A stretch of DNA of 64,000 nt, taken from Alphaproteobacteria bacterium (GTDB lineage: Bacteria > Pseudomonadota > Alphaproteobacteria > MPNO01). The stretch spans positions 896,001-960,000 of the forward strand of contig OZ219865.1 of NCBI GenBank assembly GCA_964291675.2, given 5' to 3'. A program made the translations under genes and the position numbers. Numbering within the stretch: the first letter of the stretch is position 1; each line of letters begins with the position of its first letter. Below the pieces are notes generated by a model that had not been told where the DNA came from, ran no database searches, and saw only the letters and a program-made list of their open reading frames with translations. Positions 1-23,835 of this stretch are shown here, one piece after another.

Positions 1-27
1 AGTGTCCATTATCGGCTAATGGACACT
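1..27. repeat. 11-bp perfect palindrome in the IS66 left end
   Basis: AGTGTCCATTA-tcggc-TAATGGACACT. Confidence 0.8.
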
Positions 28-44
28 ATCGTTGGGGGGCTGCG

Positions 45-392
45 GTGGCGCGTCGTGTACGCCGGTTCTGGTCGGACGATGAGAAGCGCCGGATTGTTGC
101 GCAGAGCTACGCGCCCGGGGTTTCGGTGTCGGTTGTGGCGCGTCGCTACGACGTGAACTCCAACCTGATCTTCACTTGGCGGCGCGATCCCCGCTACAGG
201 CCGGCGGCGGATGGCGAGGGTGCGCCGTCCTTCCTGGCGGTGGAGGTGGTGCCCGATGCGCCGCCGTCAGAGCCGTCTGCGGCATCGGAGGGTCGGATCG
301 AGATTGCGTTGTCGAGCGGCCACCGGGTGAGCGCGATCGGGGCGTTCGACGTGGACGCGCTGTGTCGCGTGGTGCGGGCGCTGGGCGGATGA
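45..392 (+). CDS. tnpA: IS66 accessory protein TnpA (HTH)
   Basis: RRFWSDDEKRRIV...SVSVVARRYDVNSNLIFTWRR; stop overlaps the tnpB ATG (ATGA at 389-392). Confidence 0.9.
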   Translation: MARRVRRFWSDDEKRRIVAQSYAPGVSVSVVARRYDVNSNLIFTWRRDPRYRPAADGEGAPSFLAVEVVPDAPPSEPSAASEGRIEIALSSGHRVSAIGAFDVDALCRVVRALGG

Positions 393-544
393 TCCCGGTT
401 GAGCAGGCGCAGGCTTTCAGCGGGGATTGGGGGCTGATCCGCTTGGATTAATCGAGGTTTTGGGGAAGGTGCCCCCCGGCGATCTTGCAAGAAGGCCGCC
501 GGAGGGCTTGTCTCGGTGACAGCTACATCAACTGAGACGCCCCA

Positions 545-1159
545 ATGTCGCACAAGCTGTTCCGTCACTCCATCCTCTGCAACGCCCGGGTTTGGGACTT
601 TCTGAAGCAGGTCGACGCAGCCGAGGCGGAGGCCTGCCGTGCGGTGGGCTGTCCTCACTGCGGCGGGACGCTTCACAGCGCGGCCTACCCTCGCAAGCCG
701 TACGGTCTGGCGGCGGATCTTCGGGACGATGTGCGGCGCTTCAGCCTGTGCTGTTCGGTGTGCAGGCGCCGGGTGCGTCCTGCCTCGGTGCGTTTCTTCG
801 GTCGGAGGTTCTACGTCGGTGCGCTGTTCCTGCTGGTGAGCGCACTGGCGCTGACCGGCGGGGTGCGGTTGCAGACGATCGCGCGGCGCTGTGGGGTTCC
901 GGTCTCGACGCTGAAGCGCTGGCGTCGCTGGTGGCTGGACGCCTTCCCGGCGACCCCGGAGTGGGCGGCGAAGCGGGGCGAGCTGGCGACACCGGCCGGG
1001 GAAGCGCCTGTGCGCCGGCTGCTGCGCCTGATGCGGGGCCGGGGCCTGCGGGCGCGGCTGCTGCGGAGCCTGGTCTGGCTGATGCCGTGGACCGGTTCTT
1101 GCGCGCTCGGCGCCGGGCCGGCTTCGCCCGCAGAAAGCGTTTCTGTCATGAACGGATAG
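545..1159 (+). CDS. Zn-ribbon plus HTH protein (DUF6431-like), transposon-associated
   Basis: CPHCG and CCSVC cysteine pairs; C-terminal HTH IARRCGVPVSTLKRW. Confidence 0.7.
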   Translation: MSHKLFRHSILCNARVWDFLKQVDAAEAEACRAVGCPHCGGTLHSAAYPRKPYGLAADLRDDVRRFSLCCSVCRRRVRPASVRFFGRRFYVGALFLLVSALALTGGVRLQTIARRCGVPVSTLKRWRRWWLDAFPATPEWAAKRGELATPAGEAPVRRLLRLMRGRGLRARLLRSLVWLMPWTGSCALGAGPASPAESVSVMNG

Positions 1160-1208
1160 GGGCTCTTACACCGGCATCTCCCCAACAGGGCGAGGGAGGG
1201 ATGCCGGG

Positions 1209-2663
1209 ATGGACAGCAACGACGGGAGCGAGCGTCGCGACCGGTGGGCGCGGCTGCGCTTCGCGGTGGTCGGGCCGCTTCTGGCCTCGCCGCCGCCGAA
1301 GGGGAAGCTGCGGGCCGAGCTGGAGCGGCTGGCCGGACGCGAGTGGGAACATCCGTCCGGCAAGGGGCCGGTGCGCTTCTCGGCCTCCACGATCGAGCGC
1401 TGGTACTACCAGGCGCGGGCGCAGGAGCAGGACCCGGTCAAGGCGCTTCGCCGAAAGCCACGGGCCGACATCGGCCGCGAACGGGCGATATCGGCGGCAC
1501 TGATCGAGGTGTTGCGCGATCAGTACCGGGCGCATCCGTCGTGGTCGGCACAGCTGCACCATGAGAACCTGGCGGCGCTGGTCGCGGCCGATCCGGCGCT
1601 CGGCCCGATGCCGTCCTATGCGACGCTCACCCGGGCGATGCGGGCTCGCGGGCTGGTGCGCAAGCGCCGGCGCAAGTGGCACGAGAGCGAGGCGCGGCCG
1701 CCTGTCCAGGCCCGCGAGGTACTGAGCTACGAGGTCACGCGCAGCCACGCCCTGTGGCACAGCGATATGCATACCGCCAAGTGTCGTGTGCTGACGGCCT
1801 CGGGCGAGTGGAAGACGCCGATCCTTCTGGGCTTTCTCGACGACCACTCCCGGCTCGGCTGCCACCTTCAGTGGTATCTCGCCGAGACCGCAGAGGTCTT
1901 CGTCCATGGGCTGTGCCAGGCGTTGATGAAGCGGGGCCTGCCGCGGTCCCTGCTGACCGACAACGGCTCGGCGATGACCGCCGGCGAGGTCGAGGAAGGG
2001 TTGCTCCGGCTCGGCATCGCGGGGGTCACGACGCTCGCGTACAGCCCGCATCAAAATGGAAAGATCGAGACTTTCTGGGGCACGGTCGAATCACGCCTGA
2101 TGGCCCAGCTCGAAGGCGTCGACGCGCTCACCCTGAAGATGCTCAACGACGCCACCGTCGCCTGGCTGGAGCAGGACTATCACCGCCGCGAGCACCGCGA
2201 ACTCGGCATGTCGCCGCATCGGCGCCTCGCCGGGAGCGTCGACGCATCGCGGCCCTGCCCCGGCGCGGCCGAGCTCAAGGCGGCCTTCCGCATCACGAGG
2301 AAGCGCATGCTCCGGCGCTCGGACGGCACCGTCTCGGTCGAGAACATCCGCTACCAGATACCGCCGCCGTGGCGCCACCTGCGCGAGGCCTGGGTCCGCT
2401 ATGCGCGCTGGGACCTCAGCAGCGTCGATCTGGTCGACGGCCGGGGCGGCGAACGGCTGTGCACGCTCTATCCCCTCGACAAGCGCGGCAACGCCGATGG
2501 TGTGCGCCGTCCCATCGGCCCCGGCGACGACGATGGCAAGGGCGGCGAGGGGACAGGCGGACTGCCGCCGCTGCTCAAGAGCATGCTCGACGCGCAGGCT
2601 GCAACCGGCCTGCCGCCGGCATGGCTTGCCTTCGATGACACCCGCGATGATGGAGAACGCTGA
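1209..2663 (+). CDS. DDE transposase (rve core, Mu-transposase-like C-terminus)
   Basis: N-terminal HTH (SASTIERW); WHSD / FLDDHSR / TDNGS / NGKIE catalytic motifs; C-terminal RRSDGTVSVENIRY; GGAGG RBS. Confidence 0.9.
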   Translation: MDSNDGSERRDRWARLRFAVVGPLLASPPPKGKLRAELERLAGREWEHPSGKGPVRFSASTIERWYYQARAQEQDPVKALRRKPRADIGRERAISAALIEVLRDQYRAHPSWSAQLHHENLAALVAADPALGPMPSYATLTRAMRARGLVRKRRRKWHESEARPPVQAREVLSYEVTRSHALWHSDMHTAKCRVLTASGEWKTPILLGFLDDHSRLGCHLQWYLAETAEVFVHGLCQALMKRGLPRSLLTDNGSAMTAGEVEEGLLRLGIAGVTTLAYSPHQNGKIETFWGTVESRLMAQLEGVDALTLKMLNDATVAWLEQDYHRREHRELGMSPHRRLAGSVDASRPCPGAAELKAAFRITRKRMLRRSDGTVSVENIRYQIPPPWRHLREAWVRYARWDLSSVDLVDGRGGERLCTLYPLDKRGNADGVRRPIGPGDDDGKGGEGTGGLPPLLKSMLDAQAATGLPPAWLAFDDTRDDGER

Positions 2664-3496
2664 TGAACCGCGAACACCTCACCCTGTACGGGCTCAAGTG
2701 GAACCCGTTCGCCCCTGACCTCCCGGTCGACAGCCTGATGGCGACTGGCGCCGTCGACAGCTTCTGCCTCAGGATCGAACGCCATCTCGTGCGCCACGGC
2801 GGCTTCGCACTGATCGCCGGAGAGCCCGGAACCGGAAAGAGCGTTGCCCTGCGCCTGCTCGCCCACCGGCTCGGGCGATGCGACGGGCTCAGGGTCGCCG
2901 CCATCACCCACCCGTCCTCGAGACTGTCGGACTTCTACCGCGAGATCGGCGAGCTGTTTGGCGTCGACCTGCTGTACAACAATCGCTGGGCCAGCTTCAA
3001 AAACCTGCGCCAGCGCTGGCTCGCGCATCTCGATGACACCCGCATGCGCCCGGTGTTGCTCATCGACGAGGCCCAGGAACTGCTGCCCTCGGTGTTCTCC
3101 GAGATCCGCCTGCTCGCGTCGACCGACTTCGACTCGCGCGCCATCCTCTCCGTCGTCTTCGCCGGTGACAACCGCCTGCTCGACCGGCTCCGCCAGCCCG
3201 ACCTGCAGCCCATCGCCTCGCGTATCCGACAGCGTCTGCTGATGACCCGGACCGAGGACGCCGACCTGGCCGGCCTGCTCGACCATCTGCTCGAAGAGGC
3301 CGGCAATCCGGCGCTGATGACCGCCGGGCTCAGGGACACCCTCGTCACCCATGCCGCAGGAAACCCCAGGGCACTCACCGTCATGGCTGATGCCGTGCTC
3401 GCAGCCGGTGCCGAGAAGGATCGCGAGGTGCTCGACGAGAAGCTCTTCATCGAGACCCTCGGCGAGGCACCGCCAGCCAGGCGGGCCCGGCGATGA
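2663..3496 (+). CDS. ExeA/TnsC/MuB-like AAA+ ATPase
   Basis: YGLKWNPF N-terminus, Walker A GEPGTGKS, Walker B LLIDEAQ, SRI arginine finger, GNPR; coupled to the transposase. Confidence 0.9.
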   Translation: MNREHLTLYGLKWNPFAPDLPVDSLMATGAVDSFCLRIERHLVRHGGFALIAGEPGTGKSVALRLLAHRLGRCDGLRVAAITHPSSRLSDFYREIGELFGVDLLYNNRWASFKNLRQRWLAHLDDTRMRPVLLIDEAQELLPSVFSEIRLLASTDFDSRAILSVVFAGDNRLLDRLRQPDLQPIASRIRQRLLMTRTEDADLAGLLDHLLEEAGNPALMTAGLRDTLVTHAAGNPRALTVMADAVLAAGAEKDREVLDEKLFIETLGEAPPARRARR

Positions 3497-4482
3497 CCGG
3501 CTTCCCGACACGGCCACCGGCCGAACTCGAGGAGCGGCCGCGGGAGCGGCAGTGGCTGGTCGATGCCCTGTGGAGCGAACAGGGGGTCGGCATCGTCGGC
3601 GGCGAGCCCAAGTGCGGCAAGTCCTTCCTCGCGCTGGACCTCGCCGTCGCGGTGGCTGCAGGAGTGCCCTGCCTGCGCCACTTCCGCCCCGCGGCAAGCG
3701 GCACCGTGTTGCTCTTCGCCGCCGAGGACGCCGGTCACATCGTGCGCGACCGCCTCAAGGGCATCGCCCGGGCCGCCGGCGCCGACTTCGAGGCCCTCGA
3801 CATCGCCGTCATCGACGTGCCCACGCTCCGCCTCGATCATCGCCTCGACCGGCAGCGGCTGCTGGAGACCGTCGAACGGATCGGACCGCGCCTCCTCGTC
3901 CTCGATCCCCTGGTCCGCCTGCATGGCGTCGACGAGAACGCGGTTGCGGAAGTCGCTCCCATCCTCGGCTTCCTGCGCGACCTGCAGCGCCGCTTCGGGA
4001 CCGCTGTGCTGCTCGTCCACCACGCTCGCAAGAGTGGCGCCAGCCGCCCCGGCCAGGCGCTGCGCGGCAGCAGCGAGCTGCATGCCTGGGGCGACAGCAA
4101 TCTCTACCTGCGCCGGCGCGACGGGCAGATCGTCATGACCGCCGAGCATCGCGCCGCACCCGGCCTCAACAATATCGAGATCGAGCTTGCCGATGACGGC
4201 GAAGGACCAGCGCTGCAGCTCCGGCGGACAGGACCTCACCAGGCTCCGCCGCAGCCGGACAGCGCCGAACAGCGGATCGCCCAGGTGCTCGCGACAGCCG
4301 AATCCCCACTCGTGCAGTCCGAGATCCGAAAACGCGCCGGGGTACGCAACGCGACTGTCTCCGCGGCACTGCACGGGCTTGTGCGCGAGGGACGGGTCGA
4401 GCGCGGGACGGGAGGTCGCTACCGCTTCCTCGGAACCGCGGCGAACCAAGCCGACAACCCGACGGACAGCCACAACCCGTAG
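3493..4482 (+). CDS. RecA-family (AAA_25, RepA/DnaB-like) helicase with C-terminal winged HTH
   Basis: WLVDALW, Walker A GEPKCGKS, AAED, Walker B LLVLDP, LVHHARK, LRGSSEL; wHTH QSEIRKRAGVRNATVSAALHGL. Confidence 0.85.
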   Translation: MTGFPTRPPAELEERPRERQWLVDALWSEQGVGIVGGEPKCGKSFLALDLAVAVAAGVPCLRHFRPAASGTVLLFAAEDAGHIVRDRLKGIARAAGADFEALDIAVIDVPTLRLDHRLDRQRLLETVERIGPRLLVLDPLVRLHGVDENAVAEVAPILGFLRDLQRRFGTAVLLVHHARKSGASRPGQALRGSSELHAWGDSNLYLRRRDGQIVMTAEHRAAPGLNNIEIELADDGEGPALQLRRTGPHQAPPQPDSAEQRIAQVLATAESPLVQSEIRKRAGVRNATVSAALHGLVREGRVERGTGGRYRFLGTAANQADNPTDSHNP

Positions 4483-4497
4483 GCGAAGCAGCCCCTC

Positions 4498-4551
4498 TTC
4501 CCGTTCCCGTTCCGGCGAACCCTTAAGCGTTGCAGGGAACGGGAACGGGAA
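4498..4551. repeat. 16-bp perfect inverted repeat built from 6-bp iterons
   Basis: TTCCCGTTCCCGTTCC (4498-4513), 22-nt spacer, GGAACGGGAACGGGAA (4536-4551). Confidence 0.9.
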
Positions 4552-6571
4552 CACCAGCGCACAATGCCCCACGAAACTGCCTGAAGCGATCGGCCAATGG
4601 CCGAAAGCTCTGCTTACGGCCATGGCAGCCCTCTGGCGCGGGGACGGCGGCGGGTCACCCGAAGGGCCGTAGCGGAGCGAAGGAGCCGCGAAGCGGCTTG
4701 AAGCGCCGACGGCCTCGCGACACTCCCCGCCCGGCCTTCCTGCAAACGGCAGACGATCCCCATCGAATAACGCGAAATCCGCACCATCAAACAACGTGCG
4801 CGCGCTCACCGGTCCCGTCCTCGACCCGGGTATGGCTGGCCTGCGGGGTGACCGACATGCGCAAGGGGTTCCCGGGGCTTGCGGCGCAGGCGGAGCGGGT
4901 GTTGAAGGCGGATCCGCATTGCGGCCATCTCTTCATCTACCGGGGCCGTCGGGGCGACCTGATCAAGATGATCTGGTGGGACGGCCAGGGAGCGTGCCTG
5001 TTCTCGAAGCGTCTTGAGCGCGGCCGTTTCGTGTGGCCGTCGGCGTCGGAGGGCAAGGTTTCGGTGACGCCGGCGCAGCTGTCGATGCTGTTGGAGGGGA
5101 TCGACTGGCGGGCGCCGGTTCGCACCTGGCGGCCTTTGGCGGCGGGATGATTCATCGTTTATATACAATAGGTTGACTCCTATCCGGGCTTCCCTTTGGC
5201 GGCCTTTTCCTGTAGGCTGCGGTCATGCTCGAAGAGGCGCATTCCCTGCCTGACGACATCGCCGCACTGAAGGCGATGGTGCTGTCCTCGCGGGCCGAGG
5301 TGGCGGCGCGGGACGCCGAGTTGCGCAACCGTGACCTTCTGATCGAGAAGCTCAAGCACCAGCTTGCGGGTCTGCGCCGCCAGCGCTTCGGCGCCACTTC
5401 GGAGGCCCTCGATCAGCTTGAGCTCGGGCTGGAGGACGAGGAGATCGCGCGCTCGGCCGAGACGTTTGCCGAGCCAGCCCCGGCGGCAAAGAGACAGCCC
5501 AAGCGCCGTCCCTTGCCGGACCACCTGCCGCGCGAGGAGACGCATCTCGCGCCTTCAGGCGATCGCTGCGCGGACTGCGGCGGTCGCCTCAAGCGTCTCG
5601 GCGAGGATGTGACCGAGGAGCTGGAGTACATCCCCGGCCGCTTCGTGGTGAAGCGCATCGTGCGCCCGCGCCTGGCCTGCGGCGGCTGTGAGACGTTCCA
5701 CCAAGCGCCGCTGCCGTCGCGGCCGATCGAGCGCGGCCGTCCGGGCCCGGGCCTTCTGGCGCATGTGCTGGTCTCGAAGTACTGCGATCACCTGCCGCTC
5801 TACCGTCAGTCGCGTATCTTCGCCCGCGATGGCGTCGATCTCGACCGCTCGACGCTGGCCGGCTGGGTGGGCAAGGCGACGGCGCTGCTGGAGCCCCTGG
5901 CCGATGCCGTCGGGCGCCATGTTCTGGGCGGCCAAGCCCTGTTCGCCGACGACACCCCGGTCAAGTTGCTGGCGCCGGGGACCGGCAAGACGGCGACGGG
6001 TCGGGCCTGGACCTATGTCCGCGACGAGCGTCCGTGGAAGGGCGAGGCATCGCCGGCGGCGTGGTATCGCTTCTCGGCCGACCGCAAGGCGGCGCATCCG
6101 AAGAGCCATCTCGCGGGCTACGCCGGCTGGATGCACTCGGACGGCTATGCCGGCTTCGGCGCACTGGCGCGCGCGGGGCCGGTCCGCGAGGTCGCCTGCC
6201 TGGCCCATGTGCGGCGCAAGTTCTTCGACGTCCACGCCGCTCAGGGCTCGGCGGTCGCCGCCGAGGCGCTGGAACGGATCGCCGCGCTCTACGCCATCGA
6301 GAAGGAGGTCCGCGGGCAGCCCCCAGAGCGCCGCGTCGCGATCCGCCGCGCCAAGGCCGCGCCGCACCTCGATGAGTTCGAGCGCTGGCTGCAAACGCAA
6401 CTGCCGAAGCTCTCCGCCAAGACCCCGCTGGCGGCGGCGATCCGCCATGCGCTGACCCGGCTGAAGCGCCTGCGGCCCTATATCGAGCACGGCTTCCTCG
6501 AGATCGACAACAACCCGGCCGAGCGCGCGATGCGCCCGATCGCGACGATGGAGTCATTCTGCACCCCTTCT

Positions 6572-8644
6572 TCAAGTGTCTGAAAACATTGACATCTGAT
6601 CCCGACATGAAGCGCGACGCGGGTCTTTCCGCAGTGCCAGGGCGTTGGCGACCCGCTCGGAATGGAGGTCTTTGGCCCTGATTTGCCAGGGCGCTCCGGG
6701 AACGAGTTGCGTGGCAGGTAGCGTTCCATCCTCGATCAGGCGCCTGAGGGTATGGCTGGTCGTGCCCAACTCTTTCGCCGCCTCGGTCATGGTGCGCCAG
6801 TCGCCCTGCTTGTCCGCTGAGAGGTAGCCGTCGATCCCGTTCACACGCCGGATCGATCCGACCCGGTGAGCGGTCCAACTCTTGTGCTGCCCGGTCCGCA
6901 TACCCATCCGGTTGAGCGACGCGGCGATATGTTCGTCCGACCATCGCCCGGCCATGCTGCGTATCACTGCCAGAGCTTCCTCGGGCGTTCGGCAGCCATG
7001 TTCGCCGCTCTTGGGCTTGCGGACCCTGAGACGGGAATGACGGCCACCCATCCAGTGGATCGTCAGCAGGACGTCACGCGCCTCTTCGTCGACATCGACG
7101 ATTATGCCCATGATCAGGGTGCGCACGAGACGCTGGCGGGCGCGCATGCTCACCCCGGGCGCGTTCCAGGCGGCCTTCAGGTCGTCGGCAAGTCCGGCCA
7201 GGTCGGGGACAGTGGGCCGCGGCGACGGCATCGCGCCCAGCCTTGCTTCGCACGCCTGGACGCGTCGAAGCGCTGCCTCCCAACTCTTCTCCAGCTCGGC
7301 GGCGATCAGCCGGTTGTCCGGATCGCAGGCGGCGTAGCGCCGCTCGGCGAGCGCCGCCTCGTAGCGGGCTTGCTGCAGATCCAGCTCGGCCACCCGTTGC
7401 TGTTCGGAAAGACCCTCCGCGTTCATCCGCTCGGCTTCCAACGAGGCTTCCACCGCCATGGGCTCCACGACGCGGAGGATCTCATCGGCAACGGCCGCAT
7501 CCACACGCGCACCCCCGAACCCCAGACAGGGCTCTAGCTCGAGCTGGAGGTGTCGCCGATTGCAGCGGTAGACAGGATTGCCGGGCGTGCGACCGGAATA
7601 GGCAACGCTCATCGTGCGTCCGCAGCGTGCGCAACTGAGGAGGCCGCCAAGAAGCGCCCGCCCGCCGCGCCCCGACTTCGTGCCCCCCGCCTTGCCGAAG
7701 GCATTGGCGGCGAGCTGCGCCTGGTTGCGCTCGAACTCCGGCCAGTCGATGTAGCCCTCGTGATGGTCCTTCAGCACGACCTCCCATTCCGCCATCGGCT
7801 TGCGGTGTCCATAGCTCTTGCGCACGCGCCCGTCGACGATCTCGGTCCGCCGCTCGCTTTTGCCGTAAGCGTAGACCCCGGCGTAGAAAGGGTTCTTCAA
7901 CACCGAAATTACGTTGCGATAGCGGATCGGCGTCCAGTCGAAGGAGACCATTGTCCTGCCATCCGACGGGCGTGGGAAGCAAAGCTTCTGCCCGCTCAGC
8001 GCCAGCAACACCTGCCGCGCGCTGCCAAGCTCGCGAAACCGGGCGAATACCTGACGGATCGCTTCCTGAACCCGAATGTCGGGGTCCAGCCCCAGCCCGG
8101 CCTCGGGATGCCAGACGTAGCCGATCGGGACGCTGATGCGAAGCTCGCCGCGGGCGGCCTTGGAGCGGGCGGCCTCGAACATCCGAGCGCGCAGAACGCC
8201 GAGTTCGAACTCGCTGATCTGGCCCTTCATGCCGAGCAGCAGACGATCGTTGGGGTGGCGAGGATCGTAGATGCCATCCTGGTCGATGACGCGTGCCTCG
8301 ACGAGACCGCAGAGCTCGAGAAGATGGTGCCAGTCCCGGCCGTTGCGAGAGACCCGCGAAGCCTCGAAACAAAGCACGGCTCCAACGTCCCCGGCGCACA
8401 GCCAGGCGACGAGGCGCTCGAAACCGGGCCGCGCAACGGCACCGTCCGCCGACAGGCCCTGATCGTCGTCGATGACTTCGACCCGGGCAAAGCCGTGCCC
8501 GCGCGCCACATCGACGAGATCGTATTGGCGGCGCTGGCTCTCCAGATTGTTCCGCATCTGCTGGGGCGTGGACTGACGGACATAGACCACGGCCTTGCGC
8601 GTCAACACCGATCGCGGCAACGCTTCAGCGACGCCCATCGTCAT
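6572..8644 (-). CDS. Large serine recombinase with Zn ribbon, coiled coil and C-terminal excisionase-like HTH
   Basis: YVRQS catalytic motif, EASRVSRN, LKNPFYAG, CARCG; C-terminal TMTEAAKELGTTSHTLRRLIEDG. Confidence 0.92.
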   Translation of the reverse strand: MTMGVAEALPRSVLTRKAVVYVRQSTPQQMRNNLESQRRQYDLVDVARGHGFARVEVIDDDQGLSADGAVARPGFERLVAWLCAGDVGAVLCFEASRVSRNGRDWHHLLELCGLVEARVIDQDGIYDPRHPNDRLLLGMKGQISEFELGVLRARMFEAARSKAARGELRISVPIGYVWHPEAGLGLDPDIRVQEAIRQVFARFRELGSARQVLLALSGQKLCFPRPSDGRTMVSFDWTPIRYRNVISVLKNPFYAGVYAYGKSERRTEIVDGRVRKSYGHRKPMAEWEVVLKDHHEGYIDWPEFERNQAQLAANAFGKAGGTKSGRGGRALLGGLLSCARCGRTMSVAYSGRTPGNPVYRCNRRHLQLELEPCLGFGGARVDAAVADEILRVVEPMAVEASLEAERMNAEGLSEQQRVAELDLQQARYEAALAERRYAACDPDNRLIAAELEKSWEAALRRVQACEARLGAMPSPRPTVPDLAGLADDLKAAWNAPGVSMRARQRLVRTLIMGIIVDVDEEARDVLLTIHWMGGRHSRLRVRKPKSGEHGCRTPEEALAVIRSMAGRWSDEHIAASLNRMGMRTGQHKSWTAHRVGSIRRVNGIDGYLSADKQGDWRTMTEAAKELGTTSHTLRRLIEDGTLPATQLVPGAPWQIRAKDLHSERVANALALRKDPRRASCRDQMSMFSDT

Positions 8645-8810
8645 CCTCCTTCACCGGGGCGGTCGCCGCTTCCAGAAGCAACCCGGCCACTGCGCTCACC
8701 ACCGCGTCTCGTTCCTCCGAGCTCAGACCGCGCAGCGTCGGTGCGTCGAGCGGCATGCCGAGCTGTCGGGGTTCTCTCGGCGGTCGCGCTGTTACAGGCA
8801 AAGACTTCAT
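8625..8810 (-). CDS. Small (61 aa) hypothetical protein upstream of the recombinase
   Basis: GAGGAG RBS then ATG at 8810 (MKSLPV...VAGLLLEAA...EDDDGRR); overlaps the recombinase start. Confidence 0.6.
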   Translation of the reverse strand: MKSLPVTARPPREPRQLGMPLDAPTLRGLSSEERDAVVSAVAGLLLEAATAPVKEDDDGRR

Positions 8811-9120
8811 CGCGCTCCTCTCCGCTAACGGTTCCGTCATCGGGGGAGCTATGTCGAAAACCTTGGCCGACGAGAAGCTCGTGAAGTGCGGCGAGGGCGG
8901 CCGGGGAGGCACGCGGCGCGCCGATCTCCATGCCGGCGCATGACGCAGGATCAAGCATCCAGGCGGGTATCTTGATGATCAGCCCCGGCTCTACCTCGAC
9001 GGAGGCCATGAGGCCGTCTGCACGCTGTTCGATAACTTCAGGGCGTACTCGCCGACCGAACAGTGCGTGCCAGCGGTAGTGGATGACGCAATCCTGCCCG
9101 ATATGGGCAGAATGAATGCG
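8641..9120 (-). CDS. Element-end ORF (DUF5372/Y4bD-like), open to the att site and lacking its natural start when integrated
   Basis: Frame open from 9120: RIHSAHIGQDCVIHYRWHALFG...IPAWMLD; stop overlaps the recombinase ATG. Confidence 0.6.
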   Translation of the reverse strand, partial: RIHSAHIGQDCVIHYRWHALFGRRVRPEVIEQRADGLMASVEVEPGLIIKIPAWMLDPASCAGMEIGAPRASPAALAALHELLVGQGFRHSSPDDGTVSGEERDEVFACNSATAERTPTARHAARRTDAARSELGGTRRGGERSGRVASGSGDRPGEGG

Positions 9121-9434
9121 CGATCGCCTTGGGCCGGAAGAACTATCTCTTCATGGGCTCAGCCAGCGGCGGCCGGGCCGCCGCCATCGCCTACACCTTG
9201 ATCGAGACCGCAAGGCTCAACCACGTCGACCCGCAGGCTTGGCTTGCCCAGGTTCTCGAGCGCATCCCCGACTACAAGATCAACCGCGTCGAAGAACTGC
9301 TGCCCTGGAACTGAACGCCGACCGCAGATCAGGGCCAAATCGCCTGAACGCCCAGGGCGGCTCCGCCCAACGCTTACGTTTCGAACAACGCGGCGGCACC
9401 ACATCGCTGTTCGCCCCAATGGAGGAAGCAAGTC

Positions 9435-10313
9435 ATGAATCGATATTCCATGTCTGCTGCGATCGCCGGAGCTTCTCTTGTTCTCGCCGCATGCGGCGGC
9501 GGCGACGGAACAGACGGCGGCGGCCCTTCGCAGCCCCGGATACCGGCGAGCCATACCATCCAGCTACCGATGACAAGCGGACCCGCCGTATCCGGTGTGT
9601 ATGACGAAGACAGCGAGCTCACGGGGCTCATGGTCGGGGAAACCGCGGTCGGGTTGAACCAGCGGATAAGTGGGGTCAGCGGCGGCGGCGGGCGCGAGGT
9701 CGTGGGACCGGTGCTGCAAAGCGGGGAGGTCATCGTTCGCCATGTCACCGACCACTGGAACAGGCGGACCGATGCGGTCGCGGCTTTCGAATTCATGTCC
9801 TTCGGAGCCTGGGCGACGGGGACGACGGAATCGCTCCCGGGCGGCGGAGCGGAATTCAACTTCCAAAGCATCGGCAGCGCCTATCTGACGGCCCTTGACG
9901 ATGCGAGAACGCCAAACGCGGAAATGCCGGCGTCCGGAACGGCCAGCTATCTCGGGCAGTTTACCGGCTTCGTTCAAGCCCATGGGACCGATGTGGACAT
10001 CCGCCGCACCACCGGCGACGTCGAGATGACCGCCGATTTCGCGAACGCCGAGACGACCGTGGATATGCTGTCCACGAGAGGTAGCAGGTTGGTACTTAGC
10101 GGCGCCATCCAGGGCAGCGAGTTCTCGGGAACCGCCATCGATCAGATGTCGCCCAGCTCGTTGATCGAGTCCCAGGGCGCCACAGCGCGGTTCAGCGGCG
10201 GTTTCTACGGGACGGCGGCCGTCGAGGCGGGCGGCGTGTTCGAGGTCGTCGGAGGCCGCGCGCAGGATCCCGGCCGCCTGGTGGGCGCGTTCGGCGGACG
10301 CAAGGACCAGTGA
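9435..10313 (+). CDS. Surface lipoprotein with transferrin-binding-protein-like (TbpB) beta-barrel
   Basis: GGAGG RBS; lipobox LAA-C followed by GGG; MPASGTASYLG, ADFAN, GGFYGTAAVEAGGVF...GAFGG. Confidence 0.8.
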   Translation: MNRYSMSAAIAGASLVLAACGGGDGTDGGGPSQPRIPASHTIQLPMTSGPAVSGVYDEDSELTGLMVGETAVGLNQRISGVSGGGGREVVGPVLQSGEVIVRHVTDHWNRRTDAVAAFEFMSFGAWATGTTESLPGGGAEFNFQSIGSAYLTALDDARTPNAEMPASGTASYLGQFTGFVQAHGTDVDIRRTTGDVEMTADFANAETTVDMLSTRGSRLVLSGAIQGSEFSGTAIDQMSPSSLIESQGATARFSGGFYGTAAVEAGGVFEVVGGRAQDPGRLVGAFGGRKDQ

Positions 10314-22532: not shown

Positions 22533-23835
22533 GTAAGCGGTGCGGGAAGGGCACCCGGTTTTCAGCTTGACGGCGGGATGAAGTTCCAGGGGAGAAGTTC
22601 GTCGATGCGGCTGTTGGGGTGGCCGGAGGCGATTTTCCCCAGCGTGTCCTTGAGCCAGGCATAGGGCTCGACGCCGTTCATCTTGCAGGTCTCGATCAGG
22701 CTGGCGATGCGGCCCCATGCGCGCGCGCCCTCGTCGTGGCCGGCGAACAGCGCATTTTTCGCGGTGAGCTTGATCGGGCGGATTCGATTTTCGACGAAGT
22801 TGCTGCCCATCTCGACGCGCCCGTCGTGCAGGAAGACCAGCAACCCGTCCCACTGGTTGGCGATATAGGCGAGCTTCTCGCCGAGCCGGGACTTGGGCGA
22901 GACGAGCGAGCGCTGCACGGCGAACCACAGGCCGAAGGCGTTCACCAGCGGCGCGGTCTCGGTCCAGCGGACGAACTGGCGCGTCGCCGGCGGCTCGCCC
23001 CGGATCTTCTTCTCGATGGCATAGAGCTGCGCGATGCGGTCCAGTCCGGCCTTCGCGATCGGCGAGCCGTTGCTGTCGAACACCGTCTCCAGGCCCCGCC
23101 TGGCATGGACCCAGCATGCCGCCAGCGTCAGCGCTCCCCCCGGCCGCTCCGGCCGGCCGAGCCGGTTGTGGCCGGCATAGCCGTCGACCTGCACCGTTCC
23201 CCTGAAGCCCTGGAGAAGCCTCTCGCCATGCTTGCCGCTGCGCCCGGGCGCATATTCATACTCCACGCCCGGCGGGTCCGCCCCGGACCAGGCCCGCTCG
23301 TCGCGCGCCATCGTCCACAGGTAGCCGGTTTTGGTCTTGCCCCGGCCCGGGTCGAGAACCCGGACCGTGGTCTCGTCCAGATCCAGATTGTTCGACGTCT
23401 TCAGCGCCGCCTTCAGGCGGTCATACACGGGGCCGAGGTGGAACGCCGCCTTGCCGACCCAGCCGGCCAGCGTCGAGCGGTCCAGCTCCAGACCCGAGCG
23501 CGCATATATCCGGCTCTGGCGATAGAGCGGGGTATGGTCAGCGTATTTCGAGACCGGGACATGGGCGATGGCGCCCTCGGTCGGCAGCGCACCCTCGATC
23601 AGCCGGACCGGCGCCGGCGCCTGGGTGACGCCCTCTTCGCAGGTCCGGCAGGCGTATTTCGGGCGCACCGTGACGATCACCCGCAGCTGCGCCGGCACGA
23701 TGTCCAGACGCTCGCTGCGATCCTCGCCGATCCGCACCATCTCCCCGCAGCCGCAGGGGCAGAGCGTGCTCTCCGGCTCGATCACCTGCTCGATTCGGGG
23801 CAGGTGTTCCGGCAAATGGCCGAGATTGCGCGCCG
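22533..23835 (-). pseudogene. tnpC: 5'-truncated IS66 (IRR at 22533; tnpC 22562 to about 23835)
   Basis: GTAAGCGG end; LPEHLPRIE, CPCGCG, LDETT, QVDGY, NFVEN, LLPWN; no tnpA, tnpB or N-terminus. Confidence 0.85.

Follow-up and report, generated by a model that had tools for sequence, protein, structure and literature searches.

In a window of 64,000 nucleotides from an alphaproteobacterial genome (contig OZ219865.1, positions 896,001 to 960,000; coordinates below are those of the window) we found an IS66 insertion sequence whose transposase gene, tnpC, is interrupted by a second mobile element. We hold with high confidence, which applies to the account as a whole, that positions 6544-9127 are an integrated, site-specific mobile element of 2.58 kb, free of cargo and driven by a large serine recombinase of 690 amino acids (aa). 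The element is 2584 bp long, one GC included, and is inserted in the Ala codon of the motif RPI-A-LGRK, 7 codons past a nearly invariant Glu. Its relatives support the conclusion that it is site-specific and specialised on this IS66 TnpC motif, and the element family is widespread and apparently not yet described in print.

The tnpC frame runs from 5225 to ...NNPAERAMRPI, makes no sense past 6543 and is picked up again as (A)LGRKNYLF at 9126/9128. In Pfam, the N-terminal part of TnpC matched DDE_Tnp_IS66 (E 2.8e-89, profile positions 2-268 of 284), zf-IS66 and LZ_Tnp_IS66, and the C-terminal part matched DDE_Tnp_IS66_C (E 5.2e-19). The host belongs to the IS66 family by its tnpA-tnpB-tnpC order, its DDE_Tnp_IS66 domain, its GTAAGCG... 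terminal repeats and its 8-bp target duplication. The ends of the inserted element carry 9-bp inverted repeats, TCATTCTGC at 6554-6562 and GCAGAATGA at 9107-9115, each 10 nt away from a GC (6542-6543 and 9126-9127). When the window copy was compared with a third copy from its own genome, which lies in a different IS66 host, the tract of identity extended from 6542 to 9128, with divergence directly outside. Because of the limits of this tract, and because both hosts must read ...I-A-L-G..., the exchange is fixed to the GC of the Ala codon.

A first-pass annotation of this DNA had proposed the attachment (att) sites attP and attB and a central GC, and all three proved right in this two-copy comparison and in the same architecture among relatives. 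It had placed the element at 6537-9127; the end stands and the start was a few bases early, 'GATCGC' being common to both junctions. Its statement that there are no cargo or transfer genes also holds, with the amendment that the element is not single-gene: two further small genes are present, one of them split by the element ends. The order is orf1 - orf2 - recombinase, all three on the minus strand, and no sigma-70-type promoter or terminator pattern was found in 6400-9400. The features of the element are as follows (supporting evidence in brackets).

6522-6541, plus strand: B half-site of attL, codons E-R-A-M-R-P-I (attB logo, 57 loci)
6542-6543, no strand: crossover dinucleotide GC of attL (start of the identity tract; co-variation with the other junction in relatives)
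6544-6562, no strand: P' half-site of attL, 10 nt plus the repeat TCATTCTGC (junction comparison)
6555-6557, minus strand: putative orf1 ATG inside the P' repeat, with an AAGGGG ribosome-site-like tract at 6565-6570 just past the recombinase stop (virtual junctions, contig L115)
6572-8644, minus strand: large serine recombinase, 690 aa (Pfam, NCBIfam)
8625-8810, minus strand: orf2, 61 aa, its 3' end 20 nt inside the recombinase gene (Met and ribosome site in relatives)
8641-9125, minus strand: orf1 body (DUF5372-like), its stop overlapping the recombinase ATG in ATGA (alignment, fold, DUF5372 link)
9107-9125, no strand: P half-site of attR, the repeat GCAGAATGA plus 10 nt (junction comparison)
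9126-9127, no strand: crossover dinucleotide GC of attR (identity tract, co-variation)
9128-9147, plus strand: B' half-site of attR, codons (A)-L-G-R-K-N-Y (logo, 59 loci)

We next looked at the flanks of homologous recombinases, a check that the first-pass annotation had suggested. Scoring of 8000 recombinase candidates at a cut-off of E <= 1e-60 retained 7968, the best 120 being 71-96% identical and about 690 aa long, and a recombinase relative was encoded in 546 of 597 candidate stretches from species-representative genomes. The flank survey used the best 80 of these 546 relatives (L029-L108; recombinase 67-89% identical), which came from Alpha-, Beta- and Gammaproteobacteria, Acidobacteria and a few metagenome-assembled genomes labelled otherwise. 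Four TnpC sequences from the window's own genome served as queries. A flank was taken as readable with at least 130 nt downstream or at least 600 nt upstream; twelve loci, contigs of 2555-2746 bp, were too short to classify. On the downstream side, the N part of an IS66 TnpC ended at the junction, antisense to the recombinase, in 55/63 readable loci. The exceptions were four loci with the C part forward (L041, L043, L047, L102) and four with neither part (L032, L057, L066, L096). On the upstream side, the TnpC C part started at the junction in 53/58 readable loci and neither part was found in five (L042, L048, L054, L057, L078). Where both flanks could be read, 45 of 53 loci were canonical; L057 has long flanks without IS66, so exceptions exist. 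The check thus returned the same tnpC codon on both sides, and the idea that the element targets insertion sequences is borne out as a specialisation on the IS66 motif that recurs in diverse hosts. The host TnpCs are 30-92% identical to that of the window, against 67-89% for the recombinases. More distant recombinases from related genomes (33-43% identical) had no IS66 flanks.

The junctions of these relatives share one architecture. Read in recombinase orientation, the 71 readable pairs consist of a B' flank, a core dinucleotide (XX), N10, TCATTCTGC ... GCA(C/G/T)AATGA, N10, XX and a B flank. The core is the same at both junctions in 59/71 pairs, namely GC/GC in 52 and a matched non-GC dinucleotide in seven (AC 2, GT 2, TT 1, CA 1, GA 1), and it is mismatched in 12. 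Read in tnpC sense, each non-GC core supplies the opening two bases of whichever codon replaces Ala (Lys, Thr, Val, Ser or Cys), and this co-variation of core with codon gives independent support to the crossover position. Both arms of the attB logo contain near-invariant positions, and its dyad, CG.CC.A...GC...T.GG.CG, is the coding DNA of R-P-I-A-L-G-R. Of 55 host genes, 54 have the Glu 7 codons upstream, 53 share the Arg at position -3 and 50 the Asn at position -10. The site had been described as lying beside the catalytic Glu. The Glu is there, 7 codons upstream of the split Ala, and is presumably the E of the DDE triad. For TnpC we found no solved structure related by sequence, and a literature search for the DDE residues of IS66 turned up only PMC3971601, the available part of which does not name them.

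The central GC had been called as expected for a serine integrase. This part of the first-pass annotation did not survive: GC is palindromic and cannot set polarity. According to the available text of PMC11722253, attL and attR differ in function solely by their asymmetric central dinucleotide; here the core is mostly symmetric and the orientation is nevertheless constant. Because GC is palindromic, both insertion orientations would be expected. No clean reversed insertion was found, and the N part lay forward on the upstream side in 0/58 readable flanks. In five loci (L041, L043, L047, L067, L102) the tnpC C part runs forward at the downstream junction, joined precisely at the core. Four of them have an upstream C-part flank too (L043, L047 and L102 by tblastn, L067 by its junction sequence), and the upstream flank of L041 is cut. 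No surveyed locus had the N part on both sides, and around these five loci there were no IS66 ends or target duplications of an IS66-ended composite. The constant orientation could come from selection against the sense orientation, via IS66 read-through, or from a second polarity determinant.

Further evidence of site-specific movement, recent and between IS66 types, came from the genome of the window itself (two contigs, C1 and C2; completeness 93.7%, contamination 6.7%), which holds three full copies of the element. Two lie in identical (type-A) IS66 copies that differ in their flanks and in their 8-bp target duplications, GTTTCGAA and TCTCAGCC. We considered whether these two were an assembly duplicate and rejected this, as flanks and target duplications differ. 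The third copy (C2:3468xxx) is in an IS66 whose TnpC is 41.5% identical to that of the window in the N part and 67% in the C part, and its sole difference from the window element is a 1-nt deletion at window position 8863. This deletion shifts the orf1 frame, upstream of the orf2 start (8810), and could be a real inactivation or a sequencing error. In five other genomes, elements 99.8-100% identical to each other sit in unlike IS66 hosts whose DNA, on at least one flank, is only 67-74% alike or yields no alignment. We also asked whether the IS66 copies that stand uninterrupted in the own genome speak against specificity, and set this aside: one has an AA core (Lys codon), and the other is off-consensus on the B arm of attB, at positions -11 and -9.

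Some flanks are chimeric: in L029 the N part is of type A and the C part of type B, and L071 and L072 are alike on the N side, not on the C side. Element copies therefore also recombine with each other. Two remnants were found in the own genome. At C2:2698-3381, a right end with orf1 (73% identical) is joined to a tnpC C part, and at C2:3252668-3252849 a 90% identical right-end fragment adjoins a copy of a 4.4-kb transposon described below. A genome of the same genus (G006; L010 and L019) has an 89%-identical recombinase in an orthologous IS66 (92% TnpC), its gene being split after aa 577 by about 16 kb that end in another IS66.

We then searched public sequencing data for empty sites. Logan contigs of four public runs were placed on window positions 6000-9600 at 90% likeness. 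Contigs that join the IS66 halves, skipping exactly 2584 nt in agreement with the element length fixed above, gave five run-level joints, so empty sites exist in the sampled runs:

6536>9121 (7 ambiguous bases), run X17: depth 239, shorter side 23 nt
6536>9121, run X18: depth 28, shorter side 23 nt
6536>9121, run X1: depth 8.6, shorter side 19 nt
6544>9129, run X18: depth 2.9, shorter side 32 nt
6544>9129, run X1: depth 10, shorter side 60 nt

In run X17 the IS66 flanks were about 10x deeper than the element. Loose contig ends had the same element joined to other IS66 types.

The recombinase has the organisation of a large serine recombinase. Pfam identified Resolvase (PF00239, E 2e-20, aa 18-167), Recombinase (PF07508, E 1e-17) and Zn_ribbon_recom (PF13408, E 2.5e-7), and residues R23, Q24 and S25 are invariant in 18 relatives; the short att half-sites around a 2-bp core fit the same class. 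Its mostly palindromic core makes the element a less typical member of that class, without speaking against its working as one. At the C-terminus (aa 618-661) there is an HTH_17 match (E 5.5e-6), a domain for which the NCBIfam name is 'excise'. Pfam did not find DUF4368, which, in the available part of PMC10083194, marks a multi-targeting clade of serine recombinases. The best NCBIfam match, recomb_XisF, reached 74.8 bits against a cut-off of 375 and transpos_IS607 reached 19.2 bits against 110, so the protein is a member of neither; by NCBIfam cut-offs it is not a CcrABC protein either. Among solved structures, only SPbeta integrase was related by sequence (E 1.7e-7).

A mechanical list of open reading frames (ORFs) gave a 122-aa ORF upstream of the recombinase (8641-9009), which represents only the end of a longer frame conserved in relatives. 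The conserved Orf1 of these relatives begins HSAHVGQ.V.VHYRWHP..., and H-S-A is encoded in the right-hand inverted repeat. The integrated window copy has a stop 11 codons upstream of the orf1 body and no ATG, GTG or TTG before 9009; its first ATG would cost 43 residues, predicted strands included. At the far end of the element, the repeat holds an ATG 14-16 nt past the recombinase stop, behind a GGAGG/AGGGG tract, and the fixed spacing of the ends (ATG-A, N10, XX, N10, T-CAT) brings this ATG in frame with orf1. Joining the ends in silico gave an open frame of 164-179 aa, ending at the recombinase start, in 71/74 cases, the window included (L032 and L035 fail; L105 was discounted as an artefact of a cut locus). 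As judged from these frames, full-length Orf1 would be made only from the joined ends (attP) of an excised circle or tandem.

Natural examples of joined ends were sought by scanning for the attP pattern, which was found in no viral contig and in 0/401 genomes of the class; a metagenome scan gave three matches (L113, L114, L115). Contig L115 has, in order, a recombinase 3' end (55% identical), the stop, AAGGTGGAG, the repeat, N10-AC-N10, the second repeat and orf1 (41% identical). L113 and L114 are near-identical 1.3-kb contigs with repeat-N22-repeat and more copies of the 9-nt motif, and with no homology to the recombinase or orf1.

The AlphaFold2 model of Orf1 has a confident core (residues 17-95) of three strands and helices, with a predicted local distance difference test (pLDDT) of 80-94, and a disordered tail. 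Foldseek returned no PDB match to it at E <= 0.001, only weak Tudor/KOW/SH3-like rows. Pfam and NCBIfam gave no family for Orf1 above cut-off, and none for Orf2. DUF5372 (PF17342) was matched by 2/44 Orf1 members with a best E of 0.033, below the Pfam cut-off. Profile-profile comparison (hhalign) gave a probability of 55% and E 1.2e-4 over 47 columns, with an HPLxGR...W pattern in common, and DUF5372 occurs in 12-28% of the members of Orf1's Atlas neighbour clusters. The orf2 gene has a Met and a GGAGG-type ribosome site in 77/79 loci, and overlaps the unconserved tail of orf1 in another frame. Orf2 has a conserved core and an acidic tail, and was modelled by AlphaFold2 as one long helix (pLDDT 77).

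We also modelled the binding of Orf1 to the recombinase, using the full recombinase (alignment of 18) and Orf1 residues 1-105 (alignment of 44) in three runs. The binding score was 0.70 (runs 0.69-0.71), compared with 0.00 for the best of three controls. At this score the calibration, which is rough with our own alignments, passes 58/80 solved complexes and 2/110 mismatched pairs. The runs share at least 72% of contacts, and the pLDDT of the partner is at least 68. Modelled contacts involve recombinase residues 337-344, 388-405, 476-510, 515 and 528-538 and Orf1 residues 23-26, 55-57 and 70-97. Orf1 is thereby predicted to dock where the presumed coiled coil has its base, on the zinc-ribbon domain and two chain segments. 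Known directionality factors have a common predicted site at the coiled-coil base and bind DBD2 and inter-hinge segments, according to the available text of PMC11722253.

A DUF5372 gene lay upstream of every more distant recombinase that we examined (33-38% identical), among them a second recombinase of the own genome. The latter (37% identical; C1:1134607-1137780 and C2:3649536-3652714) has a true DUF5372 gene about 1 kb upstream, and its two places are near contig ends and possibly one locus assembled twice. A related genome (G005) has a 3261-bp element, with five matches, that encodes DUF5372, a helix-turn-helix (HTH) protein and a recombinase (34% identical). Four copies were compared (L022, L024, L027, L028; at about 1344-4605 of each locus). 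Two of the four are in IS21 istB at the same motif (core TT/TT), and the other two interrupt genes for an acyl-CoA dehydrogenase and for a thiamine-pyrophosphate enzyme. Here too, the DUF5372 frame gains an in-frame far-end ATG when the ends are joined. In these relatives an additional HTH gene stands where the IS66 elements have orf2, and the targets are looser. The full-text literature that we searched yielded no mention of DUF5372.

Taken together, we propose the following mechanism. The recombinase exchanges strands at the 2-bp core, with which the Ala codon of E-R-x-x-R-P-I-A-L-G-R-K opens. This motif is encoded by DNA that is dyad-symmetric and conserved by protein function, and so provides a ready-made, multicopy and non-essential attB in diverse IS66 elements. 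Insertion inactivates the IS66 copy, in a way that is probably reversible in vivo. While the element is integrated, full orf1 could not be translated and the recombinase, whose ATG overlaps the orf1 stop, would probably be made at a low level. Excision would join the ends and complete orf1, upon which Orf1 and, by coupling, the recombinase could be made; Orf1 might then modulate the coiled coil. Recombination would in this way assemble and dismantle the gene of its own cofactor, and a three-gene element could tell 'integrated' from 'excised' and bias its recombinase. For a factor whose synthesis is confined to the circle, the logical role would be to promote integration or to block the back-reaction, and integration would most likely be favoured there. 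Orf2 is then the better candidate for an excision factor, since its own ribosome site allows its synthesis whether the element is integrated or excised.

A joint reading goes further, and we offer it tentatively, as possible rather than probable. In it, the recombinase, with or without Orf2, excises the element, and completed Orf1 docks at the hinge of the coiled coil and flips the reaction to integration, an 'anti-RDF' (RDF, recombination directionality factor) encoded by a gene that only the circle possesses. On this reading the split-gene design, shared by DUF5372-recombinase relatives that hit IS21 istB and other genes, would mark a large undescribed class of minimal elements that hunt mobile genetic elements. 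It also takes the constant orientation with a GC core to point to a polarity determinant beyond the central dinucleotide.

Several observations weigh against our main account. The 80 surveyed loci cover only the closest relatives and include duplicates from single genomes, and so are not all independent. L115 is the only natural attP contig; its orf1 is broken further on by an IS3-family insertion, and the contig may represent a fixed tandem instead of a circle. The flank supplies an in-frame ATG, GTG or TTG to orf1 in about 25/79 loci. For a classical directionality factor, to be made only after excision is the wrong logic, so Orf1 must either work in the opposite sense or be produced from the integrated element as well. 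The constant orientation despite a palindromic GC is unexplained by the proposed mechanism. Three of the five empty-site joints have sides of only 19-23 nt, all five were placed at 90% likeness, and they may come from other IS66 copies or from other organisms in mixed samples. No circle-junction joint was seen in the four runs, for which contigs only were used, and contigs drop rare forms. Finally, recombinase-factor complexes are already in the PDB, so the pass of the binding model may partly reflect likeness to them.

In a first rival explanation the orf1 split is incidental, Orf1 (or Orf2) being an ordinary directionality factor that is translated when integrated, starting at an internal, non-canonical or flank-supplied codon, and switches the recombinase to excision, as in phages. 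The modelled docking site is that of known directionality factors, the antisense IS66 flank does give an in-frame start in a minority of loci, and orf2, with its own ribosome site and Met in nearly all loci, could be made in both states. We nevertheless consider this explanation unlikely, because the conserved N-terminal part of Orf1 (HSAHVGQ..HYRWHP) is without a start codon on its side of the element, and because the far-end ATG and ribosome-site-like tract are kept in 71/74 cases and in the 34%-identical relative.

The remaining two explanations concern the link with IS66. The element could be an excisable regulatory 'switch' of IS66, like skin or the fdxN element, that spreads only by IS66 transposition. 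Both type-A IS66 in the own genome carry it with separate target duplications, so that the composite may transpose whole, and XisF is the best NCBIfam match, though far below cut-off. Such a switch is hard to reconcile with a near-identical element (1-nt deletion) in an IS66 with 41.5%-identical TnpC, with five more genomes having like elements in unlike IS66, with host TnpCs that vary far more (30-92%) than the recombinases (67-89%), or with the tenfold excess of IS66 flanks over element in run X17, and we give it little credence. A low-specificity serine 'transposase' resembling TnpX or TndX, whose IS66 association is a sampling effect of repeat-rich regions, would account for the 34%-identical G005 relative in unrelated genes. 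Within the clade of 67-89% identity, however, 55/63 and 53/58 flanks lie at one tnpC codon, the attB logo is near-invariant on both arms, and Pfam found no DUF4368, which makes this explanation scarcely credible.

Comparison with known systems shows where this element stands. With phage and integrative conjugative element integrases (phiC31, Bxb1, SPbeta SprA/YokA) it shares the domains, the short att sites, the 2-bp core at both junctions and, as predicted here, a small partner at the coiled-coil base. It differs from them in having no phage or conjugation genes, a length of 2.58 kb, a transposase gene as target, a mostly palindromic core, a C-terminal excisionase-type HTH and a cofactor gene split by the ends. 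Tn4451/Tn4453 (TnpX) and Tn5397 (TndX) are small clostridial transposons with a large serine recombinase and a circular form. Lyras and Rood reportedly found in 2000 that the circle junction of Tn4451 creates the tnpX promoter, making expression state-dependent. These transposons have resistance cargo, many sites and a GA core, whereas the present element has no cargo, uses one conserved codon, assembles a coding frame rather than a promoter and gave no DUF4368 match. The fdxN element with XisF, skin with SpoIVCA and SPbeta in spsM are likewise serine recombinase elements inside a gene that precise excision would restore. Their targets are single-copy host genes tied to development, whereas ours is a multicopy transposase gene and the element moves between IS66 types. 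In IS911 and IS30 circle junctions and in lambda sib retroregulation, joined or separated ends change the expression of recombination genes. There a promoter is assembled or an RNA processing site is removed; here a ribosome site and start codon would be joined to a cofactor gene.

The IS66 host in the window has the following features.

76 nt before the window start: IS66 left end, GTAAGCG... (left inverted repeat, 8-bp target duplication)
3-392, plus strand: 3' part of tnpA (ORF; 100% identical to the uninterrupted copy C2:1233293-1233768)
4809-5150, plus strand: tnpB, severed from its first codons (389-399) by a 4.4-kb transposon at 400-4808
5225-6543, plus strand: N-terminal part of tnpC, ending with the GC of the split Ala codon (Pfam, junction)
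9126-9314, plus strand: C-terminal part of tnpC (Pfam DDE_Tnp_IS66_C)
9354-9377, no strand: IS66 right inverted repeat (...ACGCTTAC), followed by the 8-bp target duplication GTTTCGAA at 9378-9385

The transposon between tnpA and tnpB of this IS66 (4409 bp, 400-4808) is unrelated to the recombinase element. It has ends TGAGC...GCTCA and a 5-bp target duplication, CCGGT, and encodes a 204-aa Cys-rich protein, a 484-aa rve-type DDE transposase (the nearest NCBIfam model, IS481, being below cut-off), a 277-aa AAA ATPase and a 329-aa protein. The own genome holds four copies and a 78% relative, and 3/4 copies abut IS66 pieces. Elsewhere in the window (about 22583-23815, minus strand) there is an uninterrupted, divergent IS66 tnpC (42% identical) with Lys (AA) at the target codon.

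In the full-text literature that we searched there was no description of an IS66-targeting serine-recombinase element. The available part of PMC10083194 does not mention IS66, although its supplementary tables might list members of the family, and that of PMC3469429 holds nothing relevant. The terms 'hyperparasite' and 'safe attB', which had been applied to the element at the outset, are reasonable, if tentative, readings of the pattern.

What we describe is a mobile element specialised on another mobile element, which uses a frozen, dyad-symmetric transposase motif as a landing pad across phyla. It reads as a clear case of hyperparasitism among bacterial mobile DNA, and may act as a brake on IS66 or as its hitch-hiker. 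For experiment, the family offers compact recombinases, att sites defined by nature many times, natural core variants and two candidate cofactors. By rule, polarity is a matter of the central dinucleotide alone, and a palindromic core combined with a fixed orientation runs counter to this. The split cofactor gene hints at a minimal means of coupling the direction of serine recombination, the control of which is still under study, to DNA state. Where identical copies lie in different IS66 elements, finally, they also act as portable recombination sites that can shuffle IS66 halves and rearrange the genome.

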